Below, one piece after another: positions 15,649 through 58,777 of a stretch of DNA of 64,000 bases. Where the stretch lies: positions 9,734,001 through 9,798,000 of the forward strand of contig OX597826.1 of the NCBI GenBank assembly GCA_951406725.2, given 5' to 3'. The notes beneath the pieces are model-generated. The model searched no databases. It was given only the letters and a program-made list of their open reading frames with translations, and had not been told where the DNA came from. The position numbers and the translations under genes are program-made. How positions within the stretch are numbered: the first letter of the stretch is position 1; each line of letters begins with the position of its first letter. The DNA comes from Octopus vulgaris. Lineage: Eukaryota.

Positions 15649-15942
15649 TTACTCCAGAAAACCCATATGTGCTTATTGGAAATACTCTGGAGCTAAATTG
15701 TACCATTTCTGGCCTGGGTCTGGGCAAAGTGTCACAGATGTATTTCACTCACAACACCACCACAGTGGTCCCCAAAGAATTCACTCGTGCCCTTGATATC
15801 AGCACACTTCAGCTAAACATGACCATTTCTTCACCCAGAGATGCTGGCAAATACACATGTCTTATGTCAGCCAAGCCACCAATTTTCACAACTCATATAT
15901 CACCTCCTCATGTCATTGGATCACAATTTGTGGAAGTGGAGT
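15649..15942 (+). CDS. Class I cytokine receptor (gp130/Domeless-like), exon encoding the Ig-like domain
   Basis: A polypyrimidine tract and ttttcag acceptor precede the exon, and a gtaagt donor follows it. It is 294 nt, phase 1-1. Translation: (V)TPENPYVLIGNTLELNCTISG...SPRDAGKYTCLMSAK...GSQFVEVE, with the Ig motifs LxLxC and DxGxYxC and N-glycosylation sequons NCT, NTT and NMT. Confidence 0.9.
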
Positions 15943-17234
15943 GTAAGTTTTTACTTCAACTCATCTAATTCTTTACCTTCTTTTCTACCTACACACCTGC
16001 ATATCTCCTTACCTACGTACATAATTATCTGCCCTTCTTACCCAACCACTTTATAACATATGCCAACATATGCTTACCTACATCTACCATCTCTTTGTAA
16101 TCACTTCACGCCTACACCAACACATGATCAATTACACCTACTGTAAGCCCCACCTTCATGTGGCCTACATGAATAACGTATCTTTTATGTTTTACTTATG
16201 TTACAGTCAATGGGCTGCAGCCATGCTGGGGCTCCACCTTGAATTAACCCCAGCACTTATTATATTTTTGTAAAGCCTGGTACTTATTTTATTAGCCTCT
16301 TTTGCTGAACCACTAAGCTATGGGGACATAAACACACCAACACCAGTTGTCATGTGGTGATGAGAGCACAAAGACATACACATAGATACATATATACATA
16401 TACATATGGATATGTATGTCTCTCTCTATACACACTCGCAAACACACACACGATGGTCTTCTTTCAGTTTCTGCCTACCAAATTCACTTACAAGGCTTTG
16501 GTCGGCCTGAGGCTATAGTAGAAGACACTTACCCAAGGTGCCATGGCAGTGGGACTGAACCCAGAACCATGTGGTTGGGAAACAAACTTCTTACCACACC
16601 ACCACACCTGTGTCCCACCTTCATGAGGCTTACATTAATAATGTTCTATGTCTATTTCTACCCATCATCTGTCCCTGATAACATGTAATCCTACCACAAC
16701 ACATGACCTACCGTCTCCTTTGCAGCCACATCCAGTTCACACCAATACATTGACAGTCTACTCTTACCCTCTCTCGCATGTAGCCACACATCCACACGGA
16801 CATTTGGCTATCTGCATCTACCATCCCAACCTCCATAGTCCACACCAGCTGCACATCATGATTGTCGACTCCTACCATGCCACTCCACTCCAAATACAAA
16901 TACACAATAGTTAATGCTCTTTCAGAAGTTATTGCTCATTTCATTTATTATCCAAATTAGGGTCTTGCAAATGTTTGTTGTTGATGTTTAGACCTGAGTC
17001 AACTCTGATCACAAATACATTCCAATTGTGACCATCACATATATTTACAATGCACAATGTGCTCAGAAACACATTATGCAGCATGTTACTCTTTTTGAAG
17101 ATTGTAGAAGAGAGACAGATGAGAAAAGCATTTTAATGTAGATTTGACAGTTATTTCTAGCAGGCTAAGTGACCATGTAGAAGCTCCCTTCTTCACTCAG
17201 TTTTAGTAATTGTTTTCCCTTAGTTCATGTTAAG

Positions 17235-17299
<65 letters not shown>

Positions 17300-17714
17300 A
17301 GTCAGGAAGGGAATCTGTTCTTTACAGGATCTCTAAGACTGATGAGAGAAAGGAAGAAAGTGGTCCTAAACCAAAGACCTAGCCCAAACGATGTTTGCAG
17401 CAGAGTGGACCCCACTAAAGGTACACAAGACCCAGATATTGGGGTTTTAACCAAGCATATATATCCACGTGTGAGTCATCTAAGGGTCCATAAATCAGGA
17501 AACAGAAGCACTTGTATATCAGTAGAGTGGGTTTATTATCCAAAATGCATAGTATTAAATATCCATTATGACTGATCTTGTCTATCGGTTTCACACTAAG
17601 AATACAATGGATTGTCAGGTAACAGTCCAATTATATAACCTTACGCTTATCAGAGTTAGCTGATATGGAAGGAAATATGGCAACTGCTCTCTCTCTCTCT
17701 TCTCTCTCTCTTTT

Positions 17715-17781
<67 letters not shown>

Positions 17782-17834
17782 CGATTCGATTGGATTTGTT
17801 CCGTTTCATTTTGTTTCTTCTTCTTCTCCCAGTA

Positions 17835-17879
<45 letters not shown>

Positions 17880-20709
17880 CATACACATACACACAAACAC
17901 ACACAGATCAGGACTGTGTGTGTTTATGAGCGAAACACCTAAGCTCCACGCAACTCCAGCAGAAGGTAATGACGAATTTCTGCTGACTCTTGCTCCACAG
18001 TTTTCTCTCACTCTTTCCTCCTGCATCTTGCAGCTCACCTGTGACGGACCAGCGTCCTGTCCAGGTGGGGATCCTATACGCCAAGGAAACTGGGCAACCG
18101 GCCCTATGTGCCAGGCATGGCTCGGAGGAATGAGAGAAGCAATAGCACGCCAGGCAAAACACTTTGCAGCATGTAGTTGCATACCTTTGTGGTGCCTGTT
18201 GTCCAAATCTTATTTTGGCCAACTTTACCAATCACCTGTCAAAGAATCAGTAATATAATATCTCAATCAAATGCTGGGGGTTGATACAATCAACTACACA
18301 CCCCCTTCTACAAAATTCCTGGCCTTGTTCTTGTGTTACAAATCAATATCTGGTCTTGGAGATCTTGCAGATTAAATAACACAAAATTACAACATATGCA
18401 GAGAGGCTGTTACTGCAAACCCAGCCAACCCATGCCTACGTGGAAAAATTAAATAAATACAAATGTTAGAATCTTGATGATGATTGCCTTGTGATTAGTA
18501 CAGCACACAAGCTTTTTTCTTTTTTTTTAATCACCCAACATGCTCTATCAATATTGGGCATTAGCATCTGCTATAGATTTTAATCAAGAATAAATATAGC
18601 CATTATTTTCCAATTACAACTGCAAAATTAATCAATAATGTACTTTATACTTGTCTATGCTGAAAGAAGAAAGCACTGGAATTAAATAAAACAAGAAGAA
18701 TTTATTTAATAAGAATTTAAACAATCAAAAACTAACTTTTAATTTCAAATTTGTAGTTTTAACTGTTTTTCTCATATATTCTACTCCATCCTTGCCTACA
18801 TAGAAAAACAAATGTCAAATGGTGGATAAGGATAATGATGGTGGTGGTGGTGGTGGCGGCGGCTGCTGCTGCTGCTGCTGCTGCTGCTACTTCTAGCTTG
18901 TCTATTTTGTTCTTCAAAATTACAAAATAAAATGCGGATGTGTCACTAGTTATTGTACTGTTTAACTTATCTAATTCACTGCACTAAGCTTCAAGTAGGT
19001 ACCACAAAAAAGGGATTGAGCTATAGAAAGCAGAAGGAGGGTAGTCGAGTGTCATCTTTCTAAGAATAATTCAGTTTCATTTGCAGGAATTTTAGTGTTG
19101 GCTTCGATCTGATAGTATGTAGTCTGCATGCATTTCCATGTGGTGAAAAAGTTCAGTTCATTGCCACATGGTTCTGGGTTTAATCCCACTGCACGGTACC
19201 TTGGGTGAGTGTCTTCCATTGTAACCTTGGGTTAGCCAGTGTCCCCTGGATGGAATTTGGTAAATGAAAACTATGTGGAACCCCATTTGTGTGTGTGGTG
19301 TGTGTCTGTGTTGTCATCAGTTTAAAGTCCACTTTTCCATGCTTGCATAGGTTGGATGGAGTTTATTAAGGCAAAGTTTTTATGGTTAGATGCCCTTCTT
19401 GTCAATCCTTTGTTTAAAAACTTATTTCATAGATACTTTTTTTCAAAATTCCTATTTTGTTATTCCCGCATTCACTTGTGTAGGTTGCACTATGTGAAAC
19501 GGTAGTGAAAGAAACCTAGCTGCTTCTTGCAATACGTACAATTAAATCAGAACTTTTCATGGACCCTTAAAATATTACTGTGGATCCCCAGTTTACTATA
19601 TTATTAGCTTGAACCCCACAAAATCTGATATAGACCCCAGTTGAGAACCACTGTTGTAGATAAACTGTGTCTGAAAACTAAAGCAGAAAGAGAAGATGAA
19701 ATGCAATGTCTAATCGTAGATCTGTTTTGATCAGAACTGACCAAGTGTTCTCGTCATTGTTATTTAGCCTTAAGCCAGTTCTTGAGAAATTACAGTCGTG
19801 ACCAGCACATCTTTTTATATACCCAAGGTTTCAATGCCTACTGTGTCCTTAATTTCTTTAAAAATGGTAAGTTAGGGTTTAAGGGAGATTTAGCTACTGT
19901 CACTTGCAAACTGAGCAATTACATGAAGGTTCCTTTGTTGGCTCATTGTTGCAACTGTAAAAACCACACTTTTACACTTTTACTGGATTTTGTAATTCAG
20001 CTATGGTCATGCCGATACACAGATGTAGATGTGTAGTTATGCATACTAGAGTTACAGATGGCTGCTATTTCTAGCAGATTAAACAACCATATACCAATCC
20101 TCCCATTGGTTCATTCTCTTGTTGGTAGTACATCTTAGGAGCTGACATACCTTAGATACAAAGTATTCAACAATGCATATGCAACTTAACTCACAATAAA
20201 TATATACATCCATGCATGTGAGTGTGAAGAATGAAAAAGTGTTTAGTGAGTAAAATATTAATATACTAGGCACAGGAGTGGCTGTGTGGCAAGTAGCTTG
20301 CTTAACAACCACATGGTTCTAGGTTCACTCCTACATTGTGGCACCCTGGCTAAGTGTCTTCTGCTGTAGCCTCTGGCCAACCAAAGCTTTGTGTGTGGAT
20401 TTGGTAGATGGAAACTGAAAGAAGCCCATCATATGTGTGTGTGTGTGTACCTTTGTGTCTGTGTTTGTTCCCCACCATCACTTGACAACCAGTGTTGGTG
20501 TGTTTATGTCCCTATTTAGCAGTTTGGTAAAAGAGACCAATAGAGTAAGTACCAGGCTTTACATAAACATAAGTAGTGAGGTCAATAAGTGTGGTTACAA
20601 TTCTTCAAGGTGGTGCTCCAACATGGCCACAGTCTAATGACTGAAACAAGTAAAAGATAAAAAATATATGCAGGTGTGACTGTGTGGTAAGAAGCTATAT
20701 ATATATATA

Positions 20710-21094
20710 TCTCTCTCTATATAAACGGCAGTTTGTCTGTGCGTGTTTCTGTGTGTCTGTTTTCTCGTACCCTCACCCTGACCACGGCTTTCAACCGATT
20801 CTGATGAAACTTAACACACACATAGCCCAATGTCATAATTCAAAACTAACGCAGCGAAAATTTTGAAAAGTTCCTCCAGTTCTGAAAAAAATCGATAAAT
20901 TCGACATGGGGTCAAGAATCAGAAACCCAAACCACAGACCGTCTAGGGGACGCAACTCCACCTTTTTTAACTCTCAAAAAAAATTTACCATCATTTTTTT
21001 TCCATTTTTTTGCTATTTTTTGGCTATAACTCTCTAAAAATGCTTTATAGTTATTTCCCTTACAAACCTGAGCAACGCCGGGCGATACTGCTAG
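20710..21094 (+). mobile_element. Non-autonomous Helitron
   Basis: A|TC 5' end, subterminal hairpin cctgagcaacgccggg and CTAG|T 3' end. No TSD. The 3' end is shared with 40877-41273. Confidence 0.75.
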
Positions 21095-21135
<41 letters not shown>

Positions 21136-21344
21136 GTGGAGTATAACGATATATATATGTTTGTGTTAGTTTGTTTACATCCCCCCGTCAGTAAGTGGTT
21201 TGGCAAAAGACTCCATTAGAAGAGTTATAAGACTTAAAAGGGATCAATATGTTTGACTAAAACACTTCAAGGCATTGCCCCCGCATGACCGGAGTCCAGT
21301 GACTGAAACAATATCCACTACAGGTGTTTCATTCTATCTCCAGT

Positions 21345-21918
21345 TTTGAAACGCTGAAATGACTAGAGACCGAGTCCTTTGGAAGTGTGCTGTGCGCGAG
21401 AAGACCCGGCAGGACAAGTGAGTCCATAACCCATGGCCTTCTACATGGGATGGAGCCAGCCTACGTATGCATACCTTCCCTTCTTGGGACACAAATCTAT
21501 ACTTGTGAAGACCTGTTGAGGCAAGTGAGGATCAGAATCGAAATCGATCAATGGAAATTGCAGATGTGTTACCAGTGCCGGTGGCATGTAAGAGAACCTT
21601 CCGTTTCGCGACCGTTGCCAGCGCCGCCCCGTTTCGTGTCCGTTGCCAGCCTCGCCTGGCCCTCGTGCCGGTGGCACATAAAAAGCACCATCCGTTCGTG
21701 GCCGTTTGCCAGCTCTGTCTGGCACCTGTGCGGGTGGCACGTAAAAAGCACCCACTACACTCTCGGAGTGGTTGGCGTTAGGAAGGGCATCCAGCCGTAG
21801 AAACACTGCCAGATTTGACTGGGCCTGATGAAGCCTTCCGGCTTCACAGACCCCAGTAGAACCGTCCAACCCATGCTAGCATGGAAAACGGACGCTAAAC
21901 GATGATGATGATGATATA

Positions 21919-21953
<35 letters not shown>

Positions 21954-22572
21954 CCTCCCTCCCTCCCTCTCTCTCTCTCTTTCTCTCTCTCTCTCACACA
22001 CACACACACAATATTCATATTGCATATACCGAAATCAAAATCAAAGTGAAATTCAATGACGGGCACGAGCACCATACGAGCGTAATTGTTGATAGAGAGG
22101 CTAACTGACTTCCGTGCCAGTGGCACAAAAAAGGCACCATTCGAGTGTGATCGTTACCAGCTTCGCCTTTCTGGCACTTGTGCCCCGTGCTAGTAGGGTG
22201 CTAAGAGCACCATCTGAGCGTGATCGTTGCCAGAGCGGCTAACTGGCTTCTGTACCGGTGGCATGTAGGAGGCACCATTCAAGCGGGATCGTTACCAGCA
22301 TCGCCTTACTGGCACCTGTGCCGTTATTATGTGTAAAAAGATTCGAGCGAGGTCGTTGCCAATACTGCCTGACTGGCCCCCGTGCCGGTGGCACGTACAA
22401 GCACCCACTACACTCTCAGAGTGGTTTGCGTTAGGACGGGCATCCAGCTGTAGAAACTCTGCCAGATCAAGACTGGAGCCTGGTGCAGCCATCTGGTTCG
22501 CCAGCCCACAGTCAAACCGTCCAACACATGCTAGCATGGAAAGTGGAAGTTAAACGATGATGATGATGATGA
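21345..22572 (+). mobile_element. Two RTE 3' UTR copies with internal tandem units (about 21345-21915 and 22030-22572)
   Basis: Repeated gtgccggtggcacgtaaaaagcacc units are followed by cactacactctcggagtggttggcgttaggaagggcatccag...ccatgctagcatggaaa...(GAT)n. Related copies lie at about 29820-30110 (-), 44140-44500 (+) and 24000-24110 (-). Confidence 0.75.
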
Positions 22573-25429
22573 TACTGGTCCGGGTATAGCTGTGCAATTA
22601 CATGAGCTTGAAATGTGAAATGACATACCTCTGGGTTTGATCTTACTGCAAAAGCACCTTGGCAAATATTTTTTTTCTGTAGCCTCAAGTTGACCAATTG
22701 TCTTGTGAATGAAATTTAGTTAACAGGAACAGTGTGGAAGTCCATCATTCATACACACACACGCACACACACTCGCACACACACACATTTTATGCCTTCA
22801 AATAAACTTAATATTTGCACCATCAGCAACACCACCACCGCCACCACCATCATTCCAGTAAAATCTCAAATAGCATGTGTTTTGAGATGATAATTATATT
22901 AAACACCTCTTGCTTTTCCATGGTAACCAACCAGCGCCATCTTTAAAATGTTTTGCAAAAGCAGGCAGTGGAAATCAGGCTTATTTCAAAAAATTTTAAA
23001 TGGAAAACTAATCTAGAAAATATAATTTGATTTAATGCTAATGAAGAATTTTGCTTTGCAAAATAAAAATAATTACCTTTTTAAGAAAAAAAAAAAATTA
23101 TCTATTTATTTTGTGCAAAAAGCAAAATTCTAATTTTTAGAAATGCTATATACCTTTTCTAAAGCGCCCGCCCACTCATACACACATACCTCTGTACCCC
23201 AATCTTATTTATGATTGCAGGTCTCTGTGTGGAGTTCTCAGTGATTATTTTGAAGGGTTAACAAAGTTGTTGGCACCTAGCAGTAGCAATGTACAGGTGT
23301 AAATAAAGTATTGGAATGCTGGCAAAATAAATGTTACATATGTGTGAGGTGACAAAGGTTTTAGTTAGACAGGTGCTATACGAAAAGAGCGCCAGTTATT
23401 TAATTAATCACTAAATTTGTTAGTTAGCTGAACCAGTTGTCATGTTTCTATTTATTTGGAAGTGTAGTCTTTGAGGTAAAGTTTTAGCCATTGTTCTTCT
23501 TGTTGTTTAACCCCATTCTACTGATCTATGATCGAAAACGTCCCACCCATGACCATCCAAGCATTTAATCCTTTAGGATTAAAACTGGCCATGTCCAGTC
23601 CAAATATTCAAACTGGCCAGATCCACCCTCTCACGCCTACCCTACAATGTCATTCTAAGGATAGACTGTCACATTATCACAACCTCGTCTCTATAAGATG
23701 ATGAACAAATAAACTTTACATTTAACAGAGTCATTGACTGCTAAATGGTTAGGGTATTCTTTTACTCTTTTACGTATTTCAGTCATTTGACTGCAGCCAT
23801 GCTGGAGCACTGCCTTAAAGTACTTTTGCCGAACAATTCGACCCCCTGAACTTATTTTTAAGCCTAGTACTTATTCTATCTGTCTCTTTGCTGAACTGCT
23901 ATGTTACAGGGATGTAAACGCACCAAAACTGGTTGTCAAGTGATGATGGGGGAGACAAACGCAGACACAAAGACACATAGACACATACATACATTATCAT
24001 CATCATCATCATCGTTTAACGTCCGCTTTCCATGTTAGCATGGGTTGGACGGTTCAACTGGGGTCTGGGAAGCCAGAAGGCTGCACCAGGCCCAGTTTGA
24101 TCTGGCAATGTTTCTATATATATATATATATATATATATACGATGGGCTTCTTTCAGTTTCCATTTGCTAAATCCACTCACAAGGCTTTGGTCAGTCCAT
24201 GGCTATAGTAGAAGACACTTACCCAATGTGCCATGCACTGGGACTGAACCCAGAACCATGTGGTTGGGAAGCAAGCTTCTTACCACACAGCCATGCCTGT
24301 GCCTATATGTCACACCTGTGCTAAGTTATATGTAGGATTATATTATATAATGTATCCTGTCCTCTATAAGATGACAGAGTGTGATTTTTCAAGAGATTTA
24401 GCTGCGTTTTCTAGCATGTCAGGTGACCAAGTAGAGCTTTCTTGTGTTTTCCTGATGAATTGGCTCAAATGAATCCAAATGAGTCTTCAGTGACTGTCAT
24501 TGATAATAATAGTTTCTAGCAGTGGCACAAGACAGTATATTTTGAGGGAGAGTATATTCAATTAATCTGAGGCTCAGTACTTTTAAGCGGCACTTCATTC
24601 AGTCACCACCATGCACATGCCTCACTCTCCCACAGGACGAAAAGCAAGCAAAGATTTTGTTGAACCTCGACTGGATTTGAAACCAGAATATAAAGAACTC
24701 AGACTAAAGCTTGCAACAAATTTTATACATCACTGCACTGATTCTGCCAATTATTAATTAGTTTATGCCTAACGTTTTCATTTTTCATTTTAAATTGAAG
24801 AAAATTTATTCACATTTATTTTATTTGTTAGTCTGAGAAGATGAACTTCCTAAAGCATAAATGGTTGGATTATTTGGTAGTTAATATTTAGTTTGAATTG
24901 ATTGGAATCATTGATTCAGAGTTGGAGATGGGCAGGAAGAATGTTCTCAGGCAGTGGTTCGTTTTTCTTTTCTTTTCTTTTTTTTTCCTATACATTTCCC
25001 TTACTGGTTCTCCATTCCAATTTCACCCTTGTATGATTAGAAAAAGTAGTCTTATTTGCAACACAATTTGTTACATGACATTAACAACCTTATACAGGGT
25101 TAACATTAGCATCCTTAAAATCAACATTAAGGAAAATAAATCTAGCAGAAAGTATGAATAATAGTTTAAAAAATCCTTCAACCTAAAAACAGTTACACCG
25201 CTGGAAACTCCAAATTACCTGCACTCCTTAAGTAATGTCATTGTGGTTTGGGGAAAAAAGATCAGTCACGGTGAAATTTGTATTATGGTATTTGGGGAGT
25301 AAGAGAGAAAGTGATGTGAAGATGTAATGAAGGGGATGCATTGCAAGTATGACTATGATGAAGAAGCTTATTATATTTCGTTTTTGGATTTGGTTTGCAA
25401 GATTCTTTATATGAGTTTGTGTGTTGAAG

Positions 25430-25719
25430 CATATTCTGTTGTGTCTGGGGAGAGTCATTTTCTTTTTGTGCCTTTAAATTTAACACGCACACCAGTAAAA
25501 CTTCCACTTTTTTCTTATTTTTATTTTCCTAAAATTTTCGTTGCGTCTTGCAACCTTTTCAATAGTTTTGACTATTTTCAAAACCATTGAAAAGGTTGCA
25601 AGACGCAACGAAAATTTTAGGAAAATAAAAATAAGAAAAAAGTGGAAATTTTACCGGTGAGTGTGTTACATTATAAGGCACAAAAAGAAAATGACTCTCC
25701 CCAGACACAATAGAATATG
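25430..25719. repeat. Long inverted repeat (about 140-bp arms, about 6-nt loop)
   Basis: catattctgttgtgtctggggagagtcattttc...gttttga ctattt tcaaaac...gaaaatgactctccccagacacaatagaatatg. Confidence 0.95.
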
Positions 25720-25899
25720 ATGAAGAAGTTTGCTTTGCAACTGCATGGTTGCAGGTTCAATCCCATTATAACACCTTAGGCATTGTAACATCTGTTATTG
25801 CCATGGGTGACCAATACCATATAAGTGGAATTGGATAGACAGAAACTATACACAAGCTTGTTGGCCTAAGACCACTTCAAAAGAGGTCTTAGGTTAACA

Positions 25900-25974: not shown

Positions 25975-28086
25975 AGACTTCCCTATTAATACACACACAC
26001 ACAGATGGATAGATAGATAGATAGATAGATAGATAGGTAGATAGATAGATAGATAGATAGAGACAGACAGACAGATTTTTATGATTGATTCTATGTGTTC
26101 ATTACTCTTGACTTTCTGCATGTAACATTCAGACAACAAACATTTTGGGTGTGTGTGTGTGTATTCATGTTTTCTGTTCACATTTACACACACACATCTA
26201 CAAACCAGTGTTGTTCACAGGGGCATCTTTTACACCTTGTAACTCACCAGTTCAGCATACAGAGAATGATAAAAATAATTGCCATGCTGAAATATATCTG
26301 GGTGGTCAATATACGATCTACTAAGAATGGTGGGGGGGGGGCTCCCAACACGAGCATACGTCCCAGTAAATGAAACCAATAAAAGGACCATATATAAACC
26401 CTAGATGAATGCATATTGAACTGGTCAAGGCCATCGTGTTTACTGGTGACCTTGGTTGTTTCTTAGTGCTTCAGAAATAGAAATCCTGAAATACTCACTC
26501 GAATGGTGAACCCTCTTCCTTTCCACTGGTTAACTGTTAACATAGCTTTTTATAAACTGTCTTTCCCCCCCCACACCTCAGCTTTGTACTTTCTTAATGT
26601 ACTTCTCTGTTTTATTGTATGATCGCCTCCTCTGTCCTTTCTTCTCTTCTCCTTCTCCTTCCAGCACCACTACCTATATTTACACCAGTAGCTATTAACG
26701 ACTAATGTCCCTTTATTTCCACCCCACCCCGCTACAGACCCTATCTCTCTCTCTCTCCCTCCCTCCCCCCTCCTCTTTCTCTCTCTTTGTCGTTACTATA
26801 GTTACTTTAATAAAGAATTTTAGTATATTTATAGCCCTGCAAATTATTTTGACAAAAACACCTTCATTCATTCACACATTTTTTTTCTTTTCTTTTTCTT
26901 TTTTTTTTTATTCAAGACCATTAAAACTTTCAACAAACAACCAATATATTTAGGTTTCCTAACAACTAAGTTTATAAAAACTAATAATAATAATAATAAT
27001 AAATAAATAAATAAAAATAAATAACACTGCCTTTCCACCACTGCAATCACCACCACCACCACCACCACCACCTCCTCCTCTCCCCTCAATTCTCATTATT
27101 GAAACAGATTATAGAAAGACTCATCATTTGAGATAATGGAAAGAATCATCAATTATGTAGCGTACCAAAATAACTCCTCTGTTACAAATGCACACCTGTT
27201 AATGATTCAAATGAGACCTGTAATTTAAAAAGACAAAACAAAACACAAACAAAAAAAAAGAATAAATGCAAGATTAATGATTCCATATATGTTGGTCTCC
27301 TCTCAGATCTCTTCTGCGATATCATATGCTGCTTTCTCTACTAATTCAGGATAAAGTATTTATTTGGATTAGATCAGGCTTGCCAGATTGGGTTACAAGT
27401 AGAAGATTATGCTACTTTTCAAGAATGCATGCCCACCATTTTTTTTTTTTTTCATAGAATATTTGCATCTTGAAAATTCTATGTTTTAAATGTAAAAATC
27501 CTTTGGATATCATTAACCCTTTCGTTACTATATTTCTGACCAAAATACACCCCTCATGAGTTTCAATTAAATTCTAAAATAATCATGAATTTAGGCTTGT
27601 TTCATTAAATAACTGTAACTTTTACTTATCAACATTTTAATGTGATATTTGGAACATAATTACAATGTCTGGTACAGAATTGGCAGCTAAAACCTTTACC
27701 GGTAATAGCCAGCTGTAGTTGGAACTGGGTTTCATGTACCTTATATACATATATACACACATATCTACACACATACGTACATACATGCATATATACATAT
27801 TGGGTCATCCCATAAATAATACTATCTTGGCTGAAAATGTGTGTTTTATATTCCCTGTCTAACTGAATGAAACATTTGAGTGTGACTGTTTGGATGCTGT
27901 TGATGTGGCACAGCTGAGTGGAACATAGAACCTGTTTTGGCAACAGTACGTTTTGGCACTGGAGGCAACACGTACATGTGTGCACAGAGTATAACACATA
28001 CTGAGAGAGAGGGGTAGCAAGAGAGAGAGAGAGGCAGTGCAATCTATTAATTGAGCATAATTGACATTAACAGTTTCCCTCTCCTC

Positions 28087-38483: not shown

Positions 38484-38613
38484 ATAAGGTTCAAAGTGTG
38501 AGAGACATTGACTGTCGAGTTTACAATTGGGAGAAAATGACCTGTACTTGGGACCTTGGAACCAGATATTTGCACATGGACAGCATGAATGTCACATTAG
38601 GCTGGACAATAAG
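38484..38613 (+). CDS. Class I cytokine receptor, first exon of the cytokine-binding module (C-x9-CxW)
   Basis: tttcag acceptor and ag|gtaaat donor; 130 nt, phase 1-2. It joins the previous exon as T+AT=Tyr: YKVQSVRDIDCRVYNWEKMTCTWDLGTRYLHMDSMNVTLGWTI. C-x9-C-x-W is the signature of class I cytokine receptors. This frame is absent from the ORF track. Confidence 0.9.
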
Positions 38614-44835: not shown

Positions 44836-44905
<70 letters not shown>

Positions 44906-48947: not shown

Positions 48948-49314
48948 TCTCTAATACTTGTTTTTATTATCTCTCAACCTGCATATTGGTTTTATCTAGT
49001 CCTCAACAGGGACACAGACATTGATTGTCATATGTTTAGCCCTATTGATGGATACTAACTTGCCCAAGACTACCCCTAGTTCTATTACTCTTTTTTACTT
49101 GTTTCAATCATTTGACTGTGGCCATGCTGGAGCACCGCCTTTAGTCGAGCAAATTGACCCCAGGACTTATTCTTTGTAAACCTAGTACTTATTCTATTGG
49201 TCTCTTTTGCCGAGCTGCTAAGTTAAGGGGACGTAAACACACCAACATCGGTTGTCAAGCGATGTTGGGGTGACAAACACAGACACACAAACATACACAT
49301 ACATACATACATAC

Positions 49315-49347
<33 letters not shown>

Positions 49348-49755
49348 TAAAAATATTTAAAATTTAATAAGGGTAGAAATTGATATTAATCAATTAAAAC
49401 CAGTGGCCTAGCATATTTAAAAAGATCCAGAGATTCAAATATTTTTACATACAAAATTTAAAGGACTGACCACTAAAAATAGCGATTTTGGCGTCTATAT
49501 CTAGCATGTTGACCGTCCACTTTTAGTGATCAGTCCTTTAAATTTTGTATATATATATATATATAAATATATACATATATACGACAGGCTTCTTTCAGTT
49601 TCTGTCTACCAAATCCTCTCACAAGTCTTTGGTCAGCCCGAGACTATAATAGAAGACACTTGCCCAAGGTGCTATACAGTGGGAATGAACCTGGAACCAT
49701 GTGGTTGGTAAGCAAGCTACTTACCACACAGCCACTCCTGCGCCTATAATGTGTG

Positions 49756-49830
49756 ATGCTTACAGCACCCAGGTTTCCCAAGCGGTCACCCATCTAAGTA
49801 CTAACTAGGCTCAACGTTATATAAGCTTCA
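49756..49830 (-). pseudogene. 5S rRNA pseudogene fragment (3' part)
   Basis: The minus strand reads gaagctt...gagcctagttagtacttagatgggtgaccgcttgggaaacctgggtgctgtaagc, matching the conserved metazoan 5S box C and 3' region. The 5' part is missing. Confidence 0.85.
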
Positions 49831-50696
49831 TGTTTTAAAGTGGACCAAATTAAAACCCTCCTTCCAAATATCCTGTTAATTTATGTTGCAAAAACCAGCT
49901 TAATAAATGCAAAGTCATTTTAACTAAACTTTTCATTATTTTCAATATTAATTGAAACAAAAGCATTACATTTCAAAAGAAATTTGGTAACAAAAACCTT
50001 TTATAATCATGTGTTTCCTTATTCAAATTTACTGCATGACAACTTGAGCAAATATCTTGTGCAGTTTATTCCAGGCTTTGTAGACACCACTTATGCAGAT
50101 GCTCATTAAATGGGTTGTATTTATTCTTGTATGGCAGAATTAAACTGTTGACTAGTATAGCATACTATCTGGCACTTAGTGGATTCCACTTTTTGCAAAC
50201 ATTCAGAACAGATATTCAGTCTAAGGTTAAATTATGAAGTATAGTATCATAGTTCTTTTACTCTACCAGGACTTGAAGCTCTGCACAAGGGCTTGTTGTA
50301 TTTCATCTCTGACTAAATTTTTTTTTTTTTTTTTTGGTAAACTAATAAACTACATGTTTTCTCTCCCACCCTTCTTGTCTCTACCCTCTTCCATTTCTTA
50401 CATCTAGCTGCTCAGCAACTACCCCCGTTATCACTGCTAATTTCTTTCCTCTCACCATCATTACTACTGCCATTAATCTCCATTTTGCTGTCAGTACCCT
50501 CACCACTAAGCTTTCCTCTCTTCTAGTGACATAACTGTGTGGTTAAAAAGCTTGCTTTGCAACTACATGGGTTTGTGTTCAATCCCATTGTGTGGCATCT
50601 TAGGCAAGTGCCTTTTACTATTGCCTCATGCTGACCAATGCCTTGTGTGGGAATACGATAGATAGAATATATGAGGGAAACCATTATGTACTTCTG

Positions 50697-50755
<59 letters not shown>

Positions 50756-50862
50756 ATCACGTGGCCGACCAGATCATCAGATGTTGTTACACATCGCTGG
50801 TAACAATGCATTCGCATTGTTTTAGCCTTCAAATGACGCCACCCCACTGGCTAAGCGAACAG

Positions 50863-50894
<32 letters not shown>

Positions 50895-50897
<3 letters not shown>

Positions 50898-52445
50898 TCG
50901 TCATCATCATTTAGCATCCATTATCCATGCTGGAATGGGTTGGACAGTTTGACCAGGGCTGACAAGCTGATGGGCTACACCAAACCCTAGTCTGATTTGG
51001 CATGGTATCTACGACTGGGTGCCCTTCCTAACACCAACCACTCTGAGAGTGTAATGGATGCTTTTATATGTCACCAGTGTGGGTGTCAGTTTGCATGACA
51101 CCAATATCTGCCACAACTATGATTTCACTTCTTGGCTTGATCGGTCTTCTTCTCAAGCACATCATTTGCCATTGCCTCCATGAGGCCCAGCTCTCACAAG
51201 ATGCTTTTTACATACCAGTACAGGTGCTAGATATGCAACACCAGCATCGGCCACATTGCCTGTGCGAGGCCAAATGCTCAAAAGATGCTTTTAACATGCC
51301 AGATAACGACCACAGTTATGATTTCACCTGGCTTGACGGGTCTTCTCATGCACAGCATATTGCCAAAGGTCTCGGTCACTGGTCATTGCCTGCGTGAGAC
51401 CCAACATTTGAAGATCAGGCTTCACCACCTCATCTCGTGTCTTCCTGTGTCTCCCTCTTCCACAGCTTCCTTCCACTTGTAGAAATCAACACTTCTTCAC
51501 ACAACTGTCCACATCAATACACATCACATGACCATACCAATGCAGTCGTCTCTCTCTCTTAATGCCTCTTATGCCCAGCTTTTCTCTCAAGACACTCCCA
51601 CTTTGTCATACACTGACATTACACATCCAGTGAAGCATACTAACTTCAATTCTTTCAATCCTATGCATGTTCTCAGCAGTCACAGCCCATGTTTCAATGC
51701 CATGTAACATGGCTGTTCGCACACAAGCATCATACAATCTGCCTTTTACTCTGAGGGAGAGGCTCTTCATAACCAACAGAGGTAAGAGCTCTCTGAACTT
51801 TGCCCACCCTCTTCTTAATCTAGCAGCTATGCTCTCAGAGCATCCACCCCAACTGCTGACTTGGTCACCTAGGTAACAGAAGCTATCAACTACTTCTAGT
51901 TTTCCTCCCTGGCAGTTGATGAAATCTACTTTCTGAACATTTATAGTGTTTATTGTACCTGTGCACCTTCCACACACAAAAACTATTTTCCCTGTTAACC
52001 TTCCCCTGATATTGCTGCAACCTCTTATGTAGGTACATCTTAAGAATTTCTAAATATGCCTTTCCTACAAGCACAGCCATCTACCTGAGGGAATTTATGA
52101 TTTATCTGCTTTCCTACTTACTAAGACTTTGGATTTTTGCTAGGTTAACTCTAAGGCCCTTCAATTCTAGACCCTTGCTTTCAGACCTGAAATTTCTTTA
52201 GTTCTGGCAGTGATTCAGCTATAAGAACAAGGTCATCAGCATAGAGGAACTCCCAGGGGCAGCCTGTCTTGAATTCCTCTGGTATTGCCTGGAGGATTAT
52301 GATGAATGAGTGGGCTGAGGACTGATCCCTGGTGAACCCCTACTTCTACCCTGAATTCTCCACTCTACTCATTGCCAACCCTCACCTAACTGACAGCATC
52401 CCTGTACATGGCTTGTACAGCTCTCACCAACCAATCATCTATCCC
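50895..52445 (-). mobile_element. RTE-clade LINE, 5'-truncated, with decayed RT
   Basis: The minus strand encodes PWEFLYADDLVL (about 52222-52258, YADD motif) and LEVVDSFCYLGD...KGRLYDACVRTAMLHGIETW. The 3' UTR ends in (GAT)n near 50895. Confidence 0.9.
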
Positions 52446-52633
52446 TATATATATGTGTGTGTGTGTGTGTATATATTATATATATAGAGAGAGACAGACA
52501 GACAGACAGAGAGAAGGGAGGGAGAGATTTGCATCTGTGTTGTGATGTCTTTGTGTTTGTCACCCACCACTGCTTGACAACCAATATTTGGTTTGTTTAT
52601 ATCCCGTAACTTAGCAAAGATCAATAGAATAAG

Positions 52634-52763
52634 TACAGTAGGGCCTCATTTTACGAGACCCCGGATTTACAAGTTTTTACAAGTTTTATTTTCTGTTTAT
52701 GGGTTTTTGCTTTACAATCTTTCTCCAGGAATGAATTAACTCATACATCGAGGCATTACTCTA
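52634..52763. mobile_element. Possible Tigger-like MITE
   Basis: tacagtagggcctc...gaggcattactcta: imperfect TA|CAGT-type TIRs. Confidence 0.4.
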
Positions 52764-53560
52764 CGCCCTTCCCTTGGATAACAATGGTGGCATGGAAAAG
52801 GGAGGTCGGTGTGCGTGGGCGACTGCTGGTCCTCCATAAAACAACCTTGCCCAGACTTGTGCCTGGGAGGGTAACTCTCTAGGTTCAATCCCCATGGTCA
52901 GTCATGACCGAAGGGGGTTACAGCAACTCTACCTTCAAGTGGTGCCCCAGCTTGGCCACAATCCAATAACTAAGACCAAGTAAAAGATAAAAGATTTTAC
53001 TGCCACCACTATAGTCTCCCTTATCAATGCCATGATTACAACCACTGTTTCTATCCACCAACACCTTTAAGGTCCCCTTAGTCTGCTGCTGCTAATGATG
53101 ATGATGCTACCATGGAGGCCAGTCTCCAAAAGTTTAGAACTCAGAACTTACATTCATGTAGCAAATCCCAAGAAACTAGTGATGGTCTTTTGCATCAGCA
53201 ATCAGTGATTATCCCATCTTATGTTCTCTCCCTCTACAGCCCTCTCTCTCTCTCTCTCCCTCTTCTCTCTCTCTTTCTCCCCTTCTCTCTCTCTCCCTCT
53301 TCTCTCTCTCTCTCCATTCTCTTTTCTCATCATTCTGTCCCTTTCTGTTTCTATTATCATTGCTCTATTTTACTCATGTCTAGGTTTTACTGTGCTCCTC
53401 CTCTCTCACTGTCACTCTCTCATTCTTTCCCTCTCCCTCTCTTCTTCTTCTCCTCATGGACCACCATTCTTCTTTGTAATTCTTCAATTGTCTTCTCTTC
53501 CACCACCATTTCACAACAATCCCTCCAGCCATCATCACTCTTTCGCTTTCTCTGTTTCAG

Positions 53561-53736
53561 CAAGCGTCAGTACAACTGTCTCCACCAGACACCAACCTCA
53601 TGTACATGGTACCTTAATGATGGTGCCTATTCTTTCCAACCAGACGAGAGTTATCGAATGCAGATTACTGTCCGCAACAGGAGAAAAAAACTCATCGCAA
53701 AGTCTAAGATCTTCTATATTTATTCTGCATTAATTG
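53561..53736 (+). CDS. Class I cytokine receptor, second exon of the cytokine-binding module (second Cys pair)
   Basis: Long pyrimidine tract with tttcag acceptor, and g|gtaagc donor; 176 nt, phase 2-1. AG+C=Ser: SKRQYNCLHQTPTSCTWYLNDGAYSFQPDESYRMQITVRNRRKKLIAKSKIFYIYSALI, containing a C-x7-C pair and an FN3 YxxxVxVxN-type strand. Confidence 0.88.
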
Positions 53737-54424
53737 GTAAGCAAAGCTTTGTGCTTGCAACTGTTTTTTCTATTCTCTCCTACTTTTATTTAGAAAAATT
53801 TTATATAAATTTTTTTGTGAAAAATATTGTTATGAATTAGTTTTTCAGCAGCCTATGCTCTGCTTTACTGCATTTACAGTAGTGAGGAGGAGAGAAAGCC
53901 AGGCAGAACAAATATTACTAAAGACTTTGTTTAAAAGTACCAGTTTTTTTTTTTTTGGGGTTTTACCAAGTTACTCTCTTTTACTCTTTTTCTTGTTTCA
54001 GTCATTTGACTGCGGCCATGCTGGAGCACTTATTCTTTGTAAGCCCAGTACTTATTCTATCAGTCTCTTTTGCCGAACCGCTAAGTGACGGGGACGTAAA
54101 CACACCAGCATCGGTTGTCAAGCAATGCTAGGGGGACAAACACAGACACACAAACACACACATATATATATATATACATATATACGAGAGGCTTCTTTCA
54201 GTTTCCGTCTACCAAATCCACTCACAAGGCATTGGTCGGCCCGAGGCCATAGTAGAAGACACTTGCCCAAGATGCCACGCAGTGGGACTGAACCCGGAAC
54301 CATGTGGTTGGTAAGCAAGCTACTTACCACACAGCCACTCCTACACCTATTTGTTCATATACCTTTTACAATATCACAGTATCAACCAGACAATTAGATG
54401 CTGTTATATGCTGCTGGTCACAAT

Positions 54425-54573
54425 CACTGGCGTAACTAGAGTGTGTGCCGCCCGGGGTGGCCCTTCCGTTTGCCACCCACTAACCCCACAAAAAACATGT
54501 ATTGCCTGCAGCAGACCCAAAAGTGCCACCTGAGGCGGACGGCCCTTGCTGCCCCCACATAGCTACCCTGGTG
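54425..54573. mobile_element. hAT-type MITE
   Basis: 8-bp TSD gtcacaat (54417-54424 and 54574-54581), with imperfect TIRs cactggcgtaacta and tagctaccctggtg. Confidence 0.7.
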
Positions 54574-55626
54574 GTCACAATGTGCTTCCAGTTTGTTGCC
54601 CGAGAAATGACAGCTACATCACCACTCGTAGCTCAGTGATTTTCAGAGAAGCACAAATGTAAACAATGTGTGTGTTGTTCATGCATGTGTCACATGCACA
54701 TACAACGCACAGATGCATGCACGTGCACACACACACACACACACCTGAATGGCATTCATGACTTGACTGCACCATTCTTTTCCATCTTGACCCAAATTGC
54801 TTAACTAAATCACCTTCCCGTTGTCGTGGAGGCCTTGCAAGTGGCCTTTTCTGATCTCTACATCCTGTCATAAAGGGCCATTGCTTCAGAATGAAATAAT
54901 CGGGTGTGGCTGTTTGGATACTGATCATTTGGTACTGCTGACTGCACTTTCAACTTATTTTGGCCACTGGAGGCAAAAACCACATGCACACATGTGCAAA
55001 AAGATACATATACAGATTGCTACCAAATCCACTCACAAGGCTTCGGTCAGCCCAAGGCTATAGTAGAAGACACTTACCCAAGGTGCTGTGCAGTAGGACC
55101 GAATCCAGAACCATGTGGTTGGGTAGTAAGCTTCTTACCACACAGTCAAGTCTGAAATTCTTATTTGCGATTGGCTTCTGTATAGTTTCCTATTTCTTTA
55201 CTACCCACAAGAGGCTAAATATAGAGGGCACAAACAAGGACAGACAAAGGGATTAAGTCGATTACAGTGCGTAACTGGTACTTAATTTATCGACCCCCGA
55301 AAGGAGGAAAGGCAAAGTCGACCTCGACGGAATTTGAACTCAAAACGTAAAGACAGACAAAATACCTATTTCTTTACTAACCACAAGGGGCTAAACACAG
55401 GGAGGACAGACAAAGGGATTAAGTCGATTACATCGACTCCAGTGCGTAACTGGTACTTATTTAATCAACCCCGAAGGGATGAAAGGCAAAGTCGACTTCG
55501 GCGGAATTTGAACTCAGAACGTAACGACAGATGAAATACCGCTTAGCATTTTGCCTGGCACGCTAACGTTTCTGCCAGCTCGCCACCTTTGTATAGTTTC
55601 CATCTACTACATTCTACTCACAAGGA

Positions 55627-56004
55627 TGGATGGAAGCACTCCGTCGGTTACGACGAGGGTTCCGGTTGATCCGATCAACGGAACAGCCTGCTCGTGAAAT
55701 TAACGTGTAAGTGGCTGAGCACTCCACAGACACGTGTACCCTTAATGTAGTTCTCGGGGATATTCAGCGTGACACAGAGAGTGACAAGGCCGGCCCTTTG
55801 AAATATAGAAACAGGAAGAAAGAGTGAGAGAAAGTTGTGTTGAAAGAGTACAGCAGGGATCACCACCATCCCCTGCCGGAACCTCGTGGAGCTTTAGGTG
55901 TTTTCGCTCAATAAACACTCACAACGCCCGGTCCGGAAATCGAAACCGCGATCCTACGACCGCGAGTCCGCTGCCCTAACCACTGGGCCATTGCGCCTCC
56001 ACCC
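55627..56004 (-). mobile_element. Full-length tRNA-derived SINE with 11-bp TSD
   Basis: TSD actcacaagga (55616-55626 and 56005-56015). The head ggaggcgcaatggcccagtggttagggc is shared with 31323-31630 (+). Confidence 0.85.
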
Positions 56005-58239
56005 ACTCACAAGGACATACTAGAAGACACTTGTCCAAGATGCTGTTCAGTGGCCGTGAATCCCAGAACTGTATCATCTTAAAATGAGAGCTTCCTAACC
56101 ACACAGCCATGCCTGCTGTTTCATTCCTCATTATATTGGATTGTCATGGTTGGTCAGAATACCTACAGTTCTCACTACCATCTTATACAGTAACATTATT
56201 ACAAATTTCCCCCTTTGCACACAAAGAGCTTTTGTGTTACATTATTCTTTTAATCTTAATCAACCTACTTCAATAAATAAAGAGGTTACAACTTTTACTT
56301 TATGGTCGAATAGATTACAAAAGAAAGGGGACAAACAGCAAATCCTTTCTGTATGAGAACACATTTTATTTTTGTCTTTATTTTCCCATACTTGAGTGAG
56401 TGGAAAGCTCTCTGGTTTTGTTTGTTTTTTTTTTTGTTTATTTTGGTTTTTTTGGGGAAGTGAGGTGTTATTTTTCTTTGTTGTTTTTTTTTATACTGGA
56501 CACCCTTCCTACTCACCTCTTAATCACTGACCTGTGAAGTTATGGTTGTCAGAGTAATACCTGCTACCAACAAGCTAGCAAGCCAAGCAGTCAGTCACAC
56601 AGAATGAACACAGAATTACCTGTTTTGTTCAGGTGTCAAATATATAGATTTGAATCATGACTCTTGTGATTAGCATATTAAATTCTTTTACTCTTTTACT
56701 GGTCTCAGTCATTTGGCTTTGCGGCCATGCTGGGGCACTTACCTTCAAGAGTTTAGTTGATATATCAACCTCAGTACTCATTTTAGTCTGGTACATTATT
56801 TTATTAATTTCCATTTGCTGAACCACTAAGTTACAGGATAAAGGGGTACAATGTGATGAGACTATTATAGTCTAATGTTGACATTAACACAAATTTAGAC
56901 TTTGGCTTCATGCACACACACACTCAGAGAACATATAAGTTTGTTTATTTCTGTTCATTTTACATCCGTTTTCCCCATGTTAGCACATGTTACATGGCTA
57001 TATTATTAAGATGTTGTTTACAGCTTGATATTCTTCCTGTTTCTCAAATGTGTGCCATCAGGCAGTTTGTTGCCCAAGAAATGACAGCCCCATCACCACG
57101 TGTAGCTCAGTAATTTTCAGAGAAGCACAAATGTAAACAATGTGTGGGTGTATGTGTGTTGTTCATGCATATGTCACATGCACATACGACGCACAGATGC
57201 GTGCATGTGCACATGCACACACCTAAGTGACACTCATTTGCAGCCATCATGCAATGTCCAGGCAAGGAGATACAAACATACACACAAACATACATTTCTG
57301 AACTGATCAACTTTATCATTTCTCTATATATAAACGGCAAAATGTATGTCTGTGTGTGTGTCCTTTATACAAATCCACAATTTTTCAGTTAGAGTGCTCG
57401 CACTTTCTATGGTCATTCAAAACCGTCCCAGGGTGGTCGTGCACATCTTTACATTTCCCCAGTCACCCCGCAAAGCCATTGAAAAATCAATAGAAGTGAC
57501 TTTTTTGCGAATTTTCTATCCAAAACCCAATCAAAATACCAGAAACTTGATACGCCAGTTGAATGCCAGCTAGCTGTATGTGATTGGTCGGAGATTTGGA
57601 CAGCACTCGCGTGTATGTGCGCACGCACGCATAGCTGTATATGCATGCACTAGCACTATGAGGGGAAACATATTTTAACATTCATGCCTTTTATCAATTC
57701 TAATCTTCTTTTACTTAAGCAGAGAATGAAACTGTAAAATCCTCGCATCTTTTTTTGTGGTCTTTAAGATTACATCTGTCTTTGATGATGTCATAAGAAT
57801 TCATAAACTTTGAGAGTATGTGAAAATATGAAATAATTCTTTTTTGGGGAATAATGGATCTTGATGCAGATAAAGCGATTATTTATAGTTTTGAGTTAAA
57901 TAAGAATAAATGAAGACATACTAAAAGTCTTATTAGTAGGACAAATGGTAAATTGCACATGTAGCTTTGTTTGTTACTGATTCAGTCATCATTGATCCAC
58001 AATAACATGATGCATTCAGTTGCAAGTCGCATTTCCTTCATCATTGATTGATCTGTGTTGACACAGGTCCAAGCAATCGAAGATTCTGCTTGTACTGCAA
58101 AAATGCTCTTCAGTGACCACCCACTGTACCCAGTTGCCCAGAATGCACTGATTATTGCTTGTGTTCACATGACTGTGCTGTGAGCCTGCATATTTTAAAT
58201 TTTTTATAAGGCATTACAAACTTGTACCCATCAACATGG

Positions 58240-58410
58240 GACCGGTGAACAGAAAAAGTGTGAAGGTACTTGACCCTAACAAACAATGCAGATGAGTGTG
58301 TTCTTTATAGGGAAAGGTAGAGATGGTCAAGAAAATATATGAGGGTGGAAGCCTTACTGCGGCAAGCCATGAGATTGGTGTCAATGAATCTACCTTTCAT
58401 TCCATTTACG
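58240..58410 (+). mobile_element. pogo/Tigger transposase N-terminal HTH relic
   Basis: KVEMVKKIYEGGSLTAASHEIGVNESTFHSI resembles the psq-type HTH (GVNESTIRxI) of Tigger/pogo transposases. Confidence 0.6.
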
Positions 58411-58640
58411 TGTGGGGAGATGATTCTTTTATCACTGATTTTATTTTTTTTAGAACTAAAACCCCTCTGATAAATAAGGATTTTCCTGAGTGTTTAACAC
58501 AAGCTTAATTAAATTACCACCAACCTATAACAGTGATATGACAATAATTAAAAGAAAGTTGTTATTATTGTTATTGTTGCTCTCTCCTCTTCTTTATTTT
58601 TCTCTCCTTTCAAATTTTCTTCGTTATATTCTAATTAAAG

Positions 58641-58777
58641 TGAAACCAGCTAAACTGCGCGGCATCAAATGCCAACCATATAACAGCAGTTGTACCAACT
58701 TATCATGGAACCATACTCATCCACTGAAATGCAGAGTTCGTTACCACTCACAGTGGGATCCTTCCAATATTTGGGAG
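58641..58777 (+). CDS. Class I cytokine receptor, first half of the second FN3 domain
   Basis: Pyrimidine tract with aag acceptor, and gag|gtaagt donor; 137 nt, phase 1-0. G+TG=Val: VKPAKLRGIKCQPYNSSCTNLSWNHTHPLKCRVRYHSQWDPSNIWE. It has the VKP hinge, LSW and CxVRY motifs typical of the domain preceding WSxWS. Confidence 0.88.

Follow-up and report, generated by a model that had tools for sequence, protein, structure and literature searches.

A 16-exon gp130/Domeless-like cytokine receptor gene of Octopus vulgaris and a second receptor gene linked to it

The window, the whole 64,000-nt stretch of Octopus vulgaris DNA analysed here, carries coding exons 2-5 of an octopus gene (gene A) that is real and spliced and spans 126 kb in 16 exons. 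Its product has a predicted gp130-like fold and probably acts as one of the chains through which a JAK/STAT cytokine receptor signals. All features within the window lie on the + strand. The start codon and a signal-peptide-like stretch are in coding exon 1, which lies upstream (G000:C13:9729048-9729132), and the window opens in the 3' part of intron 1 (1..15648; whole intron 20516 nt, phase 1). Coding exon 2 (15649..15942, phase 1 to 1) encodes the Ig-like domain D1 with Cys46 and Cys99 and matches the Pfam ig model over its cut-off (E 9e-5). Coding exons 3 (38484..38613, phase 1 to 2) and 4 (53561..53736, phase 2 to 1) encode the first half of D2 with C137-x9-C147-x-W149 and its second half with C176-x7-C184, respectively. 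Coding exon 5 (58641..58777, phase 1 to 0) provides the VKP hinge and the first half of D3 and is followed by the 5' part of intron 5 (58778..64000; whole intron 5789 nt, phase 0). Beyond the window, coding exons 6-16 (G000:C13:9798567-9855356) encode an incomplete WSxWS site, three FN3 domains, the membrane helix, a Box1-like exon and the tail; the intron that follows the WS exon has GC-AG borders.

Splice-site checks showed that all four window exons are flanked by AG/GT at these coordinates, with introns of 22541, 14947 and 4904 nt between them, and that the joined exons encode 245 amino acids without a stop in one frame of three. The exons, intron sizes and open frame thus agree with the initial annotation, as do the C-x9-C-x-W, C-x7-C and VKP elements that it had read from the joined exons. 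The 245-residue join is identical at 245/245 positions to both public octopus proteins P0001 and P0004, and the 16 exons together rebuild P0004 letter for letter. Calling the gene hidden was therefore wrong, since public records already annotate the octopus protein as 'cytokine receptor domeless'. Junction 53736/58641, one of three proposed for verification, is exactly spliced in 4/4 transcript-like assemblies from four studies; these are four of the 18 runs listed, their RNA status is a guess and none is RNA on record. Junctions 15942/38484 and 38613/53561 are based on identity with public gene models and on transcript-derived relatives. The complete identity, the exact junction skipping and the exclusive matches of exon 3 to class I receptors argue that the window exons did not arise by chance. 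No A-to-G differences were listed in the two exons aligned to assemblies; as contigs lose rare variants, this carries no implication for editing.

Gene A encodes a signal peptide, an Ig domain, a cytokine-binding module, three FN3 domains, a membrane helix and a 550-residue tail, which is the order of Ig, module, FN3 repeats, single membrane helix and long tail of Domeless/gp130-like receptors (PMC1963337), and the six-domain ectodomain with three membrane-proximal FN3 domains is that of gp130. The Ig domain ahead of the module, presented in the initial annotation as the gp130/G-CSFR arrangement, is indeed there, but it is also the Domeless layout and not distinctive (PMC1963337). What does resemble gp130 is the overall number of ectodomain units, six, as opposed to the longer ectodomains of the insect and amphioxus relatives examined; the membrane helix lies at ~670 in octopus versus 886-890 in those relatives. 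In the module, the octopus sequence reads C137-x9-C147-x-W149-x26-C176-x7-C184, and the C/C/W/C/C columns are kept in 93, 92, 96, 100 and 99 of 109 aligned relatives. Between Cys3 and Cys4 there are only 7 residues, where the textbook spacing is 10-15 (PMC1963337). Searching downstream for the predicted remainder of the receptor recovered the phase 0-1, membrane and Box1-like exons; the WSxWS position, however, reads FWSDKT and is incomplete. An exact WSxWS occurs in 0/109 relatives, the serine of the site is present in 108/109 ectodomains, and an incomplete motif closing the second fold is a trait of invertebrate Domeless-type receptors (PMC10276838).

The window exons show phases 1 | 1-2-1-0, confirming the reported pattern. 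Because the 1-2-1-0-1 rule is common to class I and class II receptors (PMC8863823), phases by themselves do not say class I. Class I identity is indicated by exon 3 (42 aa), for which 29/29 PDB matches at E<=10 are class I cytokine receptor chains (best E 0.004).

Searching the PDB with the whole protein sequence ranked RPTP-sigma, fibronectin, RPTP-delta and contactin-6 ahead of gp130 in fifth place, and Pfam FN3_DSCAM scored just below cut-off, as would suit an Ig/FN3 adhesion or guidance protein of the RPTP, contactin or DSCAM kind that merely resembles cytokine receptors. These RPTP, fibronectin and contactin matches, however, span generic FN3 repeats only, the domain search found neither a phosphatase nor any other folded domain in the cytoplasmic part, and by fold the gp130 family comes first. 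For the O. bimaculoides orthologue P0006, modelled with AlphaFold2 (mean pLDDT 81), the 11 best Foldseek matches are IL-6, IL-11, OSM, gp130 or IL-12 receptor structure chains (E 2.6e-34 to 1.8e-25), followed by contactin 2 (E 3.2e-22), and 10/10 Atlas rows shown are cytokine-receptor clusters (0.95-0.97). Best matches outside the cytokine receptors, which the initial annotation had named as contrary evidence, are thus seen for the whole protein by sequence and not for exon 3 or the fold. An adhesion or guidance identity is extremely improbable and is refuted in practice by the exon 3 matches, the fold ranking and the Atlas clusters. The ectodomain of gene A is predicted to fold like gp130 in six domains; whole-ectodomain TM-scores of the P0006 model are only ~0.48, with rmsd near 9 A.

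Ten near relatives that were looked up share 29-36% identity over the ectodomain, and all functional names given to these 10 are DOME, LIFR-, OSMR-, IL6ST-like or cytokine receptor. In trees of the proteins recovered, none of which was recognised as vertebrate, the octopus protein falls inside a 35-row clade of mollusc-like sequences (support 99, with long branches and unsettled deep forks), and the arthropod set forms its own clade (SH-aLRT 100). Together, these observations support the proposed cephalopod gp130/Domeless-like receptor, which would signal through JAK/STAT.

The cytoplasmic tail bears on how such a signal may be passed on. In 5/5 cephalopod sequences at 50-97% identity there is no change in NLPSLPDEPLYYDDE or in the last 13 residues, nor in LPSLPDEP, which is displaced and lacks the last proline in comparison with Box1. 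Its PSLPD core, ~23 residues from the membrane and without the final proline of the PxxPxP consensus, is also seen in IL-7R alpha, in the juxtamembrane part of its tail (PMC7444064); the Box1-like exon gave 0 PDB matches by sequence. On the analogy of gp130 and Domeless, signalling would begin when a secreted helical cytokine attaches to the elbow between D2 and D3 and to the Ig domain, pairing two chains and drawing their membrane helices together. A JAK held at LPSLPDE and the following acidic patch would then phosphorylate conserved tail tyrosines, the phosphorylated tail would recruit a STAT5-like factor rather than STAT3, and the C-terminal TTDL of gene A may tie the receptor to a PDZ scaffold.

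A cytokine-binding chain without JAK use, acting as decoy, modulator or scaffold-coupled receptor with its output running via the PDZ-type terminus or further motifs of the tail, appears unlikely. In its favour are the cephalopod loss of the membrane-near proline, which is present in 11/11 non-cephalopod group members aligned and missing from 4/4 cephalopod sequences, the displaced, incomplete Box1, the absence of YxxQ from 4/4 cephalopod tails scanned and the few Domeless-type tyrosine motifs. Across molluscs, the best-kept part of the tail is its C-terminal end and not a tyrosine. Yet decoys usually keep nothing like a 550-residue tail with an invariant proline-rich/acidic stretch, in which about half of 20 tyrosines are, by eye, invariant in five cephalopod sequences, and the YLDG at 810 agrees with a loosely defined STAT5 pattern (PMC7444064). 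Counted against the preferred JAK/STAT signalling chain are the lack of an exact WSxWS, the spacing of 7, the lack of YxxQ, the missing membrane-near proline and the displaced PSLPD, along with the plain PDB sequence ranking and the low whole-ectodomain TM-scores.

A C-terminal, PDZ-type T-[ED]-L was found in 15/70 full-length relatives, from cephalopods, bivalves and gastropods, and is a new observation for molluscan cytokine receptors. Support for the group of receptors carrying it was unstable (0.956 with FastTree, 36 with IQ-TREE fast, 95 with IQ-TREE quick).

Analysis of downstream components revealed a JAK FERM exon in the octopus genome (E 2.8e-7) that is 100% identical to the JAK1-like P0202 and gave 0 PDB matches by sequence, and weak STAT5-like exons (E 0.004 in PDB). 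Genome Pfam searches for FERM_F2, STAT_bind, IL6, GCSF and LIF_OSM returned nothing credible; the controls were silent too, and absence is not implied. In a 2026 survey, molluscs are described with receptor, JAK and STAT and without a recognised IL-6 ligand (PMC13203501); its one supplement contains two Octopus species and lacks the two accessions searched.

A second, related receptor gene (gene B), a new observation, lies on the same chromosome 0.78 Mb from gene A and has identical intron phases at 12/12 introns. A and B are the only receptor genes found in 1.246 Mb around the window and in two genome-wide exon searches, numbers that are lower bounds. A genome match on C18, considered as a further receptor gene, was rejected, having a stop and no exon signals, and a genome search with P0006 is uninformative on paralogues, its matches being dominated by a repeat-like insert at P0006 residues 586-615. 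A tree uniting genes A and B was not rejected (p-AU 0.49).

As gp130 pairs with LIFR or OSMR, A might pair with B, with A supplying a PDZ anchor and the Box1-like site and B repeated tyrosine docking sites, a tentative proposal that is compatible with a JAK/STAT signalling chain and differs in chain pairing. Apart from the searches recovering A and B only, it draws on the co-occurrence of both types in octopods and in transcript-derived relatives and on their tails, which differ in [GSPDN]-Y-[VI] counts (A-type 1, 1, 0, 0, n=4; B-type 5, 3, n=2; arthropod-clade 1-7, n=11). Old tandem duplication alone would explain the linkage, however, the exon search found no recognisable Box1 exon in B, and fly and sea-squirt receptors are thought to be homodimers (PMC1963337). 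Similarly doubtful is the wider proposal that A and B make up the complete class I receptor set of the octopus and receive a putative IL-6-like family, as the first matched molluscan cytokine-receptor pair, with gene A in a mollusc-wide PDZ-anchored T-[ED]-L subfamily kept since the molluscan classes split.

Gene A itself is ordinary: its receptor family is known, and an annotation pipeline had already given the gene its name. Vertebrate-like 1-2-1-0-1 module splicing in a protostome is a new observation: a single-exon fly module has been contrasted with the spliced module of sea squirt and vertebrates (PMC1963337), and two octopus genes with this splicing suggest that the pattern arose before protostomes and deuterostomes diverged, with a later loss in flies. 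The two defined chains are targets for testing candidate ligands, and the conserved PDZ-type end is a lead on the localisation of molluscan cytokine receptors.

Among known systems, molluscan DOME/IL6ST-like/LIFR-like receptors (Mytilus CAG2241080 'DOME', Mizuhopecten OWF38147, Haliotis XP_067678203, Gigantopelta XP_041359439) share the octopus cysteines, hinge and incomplete WS site, and many also the T-[ED]-L end; molluscan IL6R-like receptors are treated as a group in PMC13203501. What sets the cephalopod members apart is that the membrane-near proline and the bivalve [SG]-I-Y-x-x-I motif are missing, that the end is TDL instead of TEL, and that the tail exceeds most others in length. Human gp130 (IL6ST) and the group 2 'tall' receptors (G-CSFR, IL-12R beta2, LIFR, OSMR) have the same Ig-module-3xFN3-membrane layout and are the best structural matches of the P0006 model, at 18-19% identity. 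The octopus tail is longer than theirs, and strict gp130 features, namely an exact WSXWS, C-x(10-15)-C spacing (octopus 7) and YxxQ STAT3 sites, are missing. Two of three IL6ST phases readable in PMC10746620 match octopus (c.1552 and c.1699, both phase 1), whereas the intron inside D5 is phase 0 in octopus and, as an exon-12 deletion implies for c.1450, phase 1 in IL6ST. RPTP, contactin and DSCAM proteins, with several Ig domains or a cytoplasmic phosphatase domain and without a cytokine module, differ from the octopus protein, which has one Ig domain, a cytokine module and no folded cytoplasmic domain found.

Arthropod Domeless (insect, myriapod, shrimp) shares with octopus the four cysteines and incomplete WSXWS (PMC10276838) and, with a Box1-like exon on the octopus side, the Ig-CHD-FBN-TM-Box1 topology (PMC1963337), but forms a separate, fully supported clade in trees, has its membrane helix at ~840-910 and presumably about two extra FN3 units; the fly Dome module lies in one exon (PMC1963337) and the octopus module in four. 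C-terminal PDZ-binding ends are known from IL-5R alpha with syntenin and from class I isoforms with PDZ-type ends (PMC7444064), to which the putative octopus end may be compared. Whereas those ends are receptor- or isoform-specific, the molluscan T-[ED]-L end is common to three classes and is accompanied upstream by an [LV]-P-x-x-[FY]-[FY] element.

The four exons at 15649-15942, 38484-38613, 53561-53736 and 58641-58777 are bounded by AG and GT, are separated by introns of the three stated lengths and join into an open 245-aa frame, all as described in the initial annotation, whose four-exon observation is real and was correctly read. The window corresponds to G000:C13:9734001-9798000. They are coding exons 2-5 of a sixteen-exon receptor gene (gene A), translation of which exactly reproduces the 1240-aa public O. 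vulgaris record CAI9731568 (P0004). Because this record already carries the name 'cytokine receptor domeless', the gene is not hidden, as had been proposed; it is an annotated but unstudied member of a known family. Searches of the open-access literature found no publication on an octopus domeless-type cytokine receptor, and for cephalopod JAK/STAT cytokine receptors gave mussel work only. The Ig exon has a single match in the genome, and a search with it returned two full-length proteins among 78 candidates; P0004 clusters with O. sinensis XP_029644049 ('uncharacterized') and O. bimaculoides XP_052828310. An older O. bimaculoides annotation (P0005, P0006) divides the gene in two, and residues 586-615 of P0006 are a repeat-like insert.

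In window numbering extended past both window ends, the gene opens with the signal exon (-4952 to -4868), followed by the four window exons and the WS-site exon (64567-64714). Six exons (66045-66136, 66941-67160, 70134-70306, 72349-72562, 74240-74395 and 82711-82866) encode a three-FN3 region, followed by the membrane-helix exon (83830-83914), an 82-nt Box1-like exon (113134-113215), the first tail exon (116466-116627) and the last tail exon with the stop (119944-121356). The membrane and Box1-like exons predicted downstream were thus both located, as was the predicted WSxWS exon, although its motif is incomplete. Intron phases run 1-1-2-1-0-1-0-1-0-1-1-1-2-0-0, and the forecast series 1-2-1-0-1 is complete once the downstream exon is added. 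Fourteen introns start with GT, and the one that follows the WS exon (G000:C13:9798714, on the contig of the window) starts with GC.

Junction 53736/58641, one of those suggested for transcript support, was joined by one 2.0-3.8 kb contig in each of the four assemblies examined, with a GT-AG gap of 4904 nt. Of 24 runs listed, 18 contain the Ig exon; these 18 come from six studies, and their type was either guessed to be RNA or unknown. Two unnamed 1241-aa relatives (54% identity) derive from contigs that, at 4.3 and 4.6 kb, leave no room for introns of gene A size. When the window was compared at DNA level with a 200-kb stretch from another part of the chromosome, 23,114 of its 64,000 bases matched and none of the four exons did, so that repeats abound in the window introns but not in the exons; much of 53950-57800 consists of high-copy repeats. 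A 105-aa frame inside intron 1 (863-1180, +), with C2H2 zinc-finger-like Pfam matches below cut-off, is likely a retroelement remnant, and a related short stretch is found close to where the 27629-28066 (-) frame ends. Frames at 4776-5135 (+), 8002-8400 (-) and 51606-52049 (-), for which a Pfam search gave no matching family, resemble what we take to be decayed LINE-type retroelement pieces.

The gene A protein comprises a signal-peptide-like start, an Ig domain (D1; Pfam ig, over cut-off), a cytokine-binding module (D2-D3), three further FN3 domains (D4-D6), one membrane helix near residues 666-688 and a cytoplasmic part of about 550 residues. Its module reads C137-x9-C147-x-W149-x26-C176-x7-C184, with FWSDKT at the WS site. 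Compared with the classical signature, CX(9-10)CXWX(26-32)CX(10-15)C plus WSXWS (accessible text of PMC1963337), the first two spacings agree, whereas the last spacing and WSXWS do not. According to the available part of PMC10276838, invertebrate receptors usually have an incomplete WSXWS, and this was seen in all 109 relatives with at least 70% ectodomain cover, from 153 examined. A plain sequence search with the whole protein placed RPTP, fibronectin and contactin on top and gp130 fifth, but the former matches are confined to generic FN3 repeats. Exon 3 alone gave 29 PDB matches, individually weak and every one a class I receptor chain. The fold of O. bimaculoides P0006 (93% identical to P0001, a public octopus protein identical to the 245-aa join), predicted from an alignment with 35 relatives, is nearly all beta (mean pLDDT 81). 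Foldseek placed chains of IL-6, IL-11, OSM, gp130 and IL-12 receptor structures at ranks 1-11 and contactin 2 at rank 12, consistent with a predicted gp130-like ectodomain fold. The module, the layout (compared with vertebrate receptors as laid out in the accessible part of PMC12284397) and the Foldseek ranking bear out the proposed gp130/Domeless-like class I receptor; the incomplete WSXWS and the short last Cys spacing do not. We assign the product to the invertebrate Domeless/gp130-like receptors, not as a gp130 orthologue.

Two points are worth following, a linked paralogue and a conserved PDZ-type end. Searching the genome with exon 3 yielded at least one other credible exon, and the reverse search returned gene A alone, likewise a lower bound. 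This paralogue, gene B (G000:C13:10639386-10681230), lies on the minus strand, opposite to gene A and 0.78 Mb beyond its end; twelve exons, Ig through membrane helix, give a continuous reading frame when joined. Intron phases equal those of gene A at 12/12 introns, and for seven of ten internal introns the profile column is also identical, with offsets of 1-4 columns in the rest. Gene B matches O. bimaculoides XP_052828325 and Argonauta GAB1601828, and B-type relatives share only 20-26% identity with gene A. Its WS site is IYSEP, and its tail exons were located in part (a 202-aa frame near G000:C13:10626416). Both receptor genes contain a single GC-AG intron, but its position differs: after the WS exon in gene A and after the Ig exon in gene B (G000:C13:10680985). 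No third receptor gene emerged when 1.246 Mb was scanned with a profile; a 268-aa frame between the two (near G000:C13:10550007, +) resembles, we presume, the start of HMBOX1/HNF1-type homeobox proteins. Three Haliotis asinina receptors (P0018, P0021, P0068) are assigned to contigs of identical length, as are two from Gigantopelta (P0012, P0026), suggesting that in gastropods, too, these receptors cluster on a single chromosome.

In the cytoplasmic tail, NLPSLPDEPLYYDDE, the last 13 residues and, by eye, about half of the 20 tyrosines are invariant in five cephalopod sequences. The accessible text of PMC7444064 places PSLPD near the membrane in IL-7R alpha as well, and gives a class 1 PDZ pattern that accommodates TDL. 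A membrane helix together with a tail of at least 200 residues was present in 70 sequences. T-[ED]-L forms the end of 15 of these, among them the octopus protein and three of its cephalopod relatives, against an expectation of about 0.0006 per tail; since the 15 are related, they do not count as separate events. The genera named for this set are Octopus, Argonauta, Pecten, Mytilus, Solemya, Sinanodonta, Pinctada, Haliotis and Lymnaea. All 15 carry [LV]-P-x-x-[FY]-[FYL] shortly upstream of the end, and ectodomain-only trees unite them in one group (support 0.956, 36 and 95 in FastTree, IQ-TREE fast and IQ-TREE quick runs), several members of which have no T-[ED]-L end. In bivalve and gastropod relatives (P0013-P0019, P0022, P0027, P0028, P0037), R-P-[VLI]-S stands upstream of [LV]-P-x-x-[FY] and a T-E-L end; cephalopod C-termini are without this R-P-x-S element. 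A literature search on a PDZ-binding motif of domeless found nothing relevant.

Coding sequence for putative downstream components is present in the genome. A JAK FERM exon (G000:C3:167718346-167718558) is identical to O. sinensis 'JAK1-like' P0202, which holds FERM, SH2-like and two kinase stretches; the octopus JAK FERM-SH2 region gives weak scores with Pfam JAK models and looks divergent. Two neighbouring STAT-like exons were matched at G000:C17:64042956-64044709, one of them to STAT5A/B only. In the available part of PMC13081863, lamprey STAT5 acts downstream of IL-6, which agrees with the octopus tail, as no YxxQ occurs in the four cephalopod tails scanned. Molluscan receptors of this kind are described as a group without a recognised ligand (PMC13203501), and those of mussel as still unidentified in 2012 (PMC3308963), in the accessible portions of both sources. 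We infer that a ligand would bind at D2-D3 and D1, that receptor chains would form a dimer with JAK at the Box1-like site, and that a STAT5-like factor would be recruited while the C-terminal end would anchor the receptor via PDZ. JAK binding is the weakest proposed step, because the membrane-near proline present in the other 11 T-[ED]-L receptors is absent from cephalopods.

The Box1 exon of IL6ST is presumably also 82 nt long, and we assume that, beyond the three introns that could be placed, its intron phases agree with gene A. These lie at c.1552, c.1699 and c.1450 (all phase 1; accessible part of PMC10746620); the first two have the same phase as the octopus introns at D5/D6 and within D6, whereas the third does not, the octopus intron within D5 being phase 0. 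The 1-2-1-0-1 series, which the initial annotation took as a class I mark, is present in full, but it also occurs in class II receptors (available text of PMC8863823) and is therefore not diagnostic of class I. As far as the accessible text of PMC1963337 describes, the module of fly Dome is a single exon and a sea-squirt chain is spliced like GP130. Unlike that of fly Dome, the octopus module is spliced over several exons, and genes A and B place this spliced form in a protostome.
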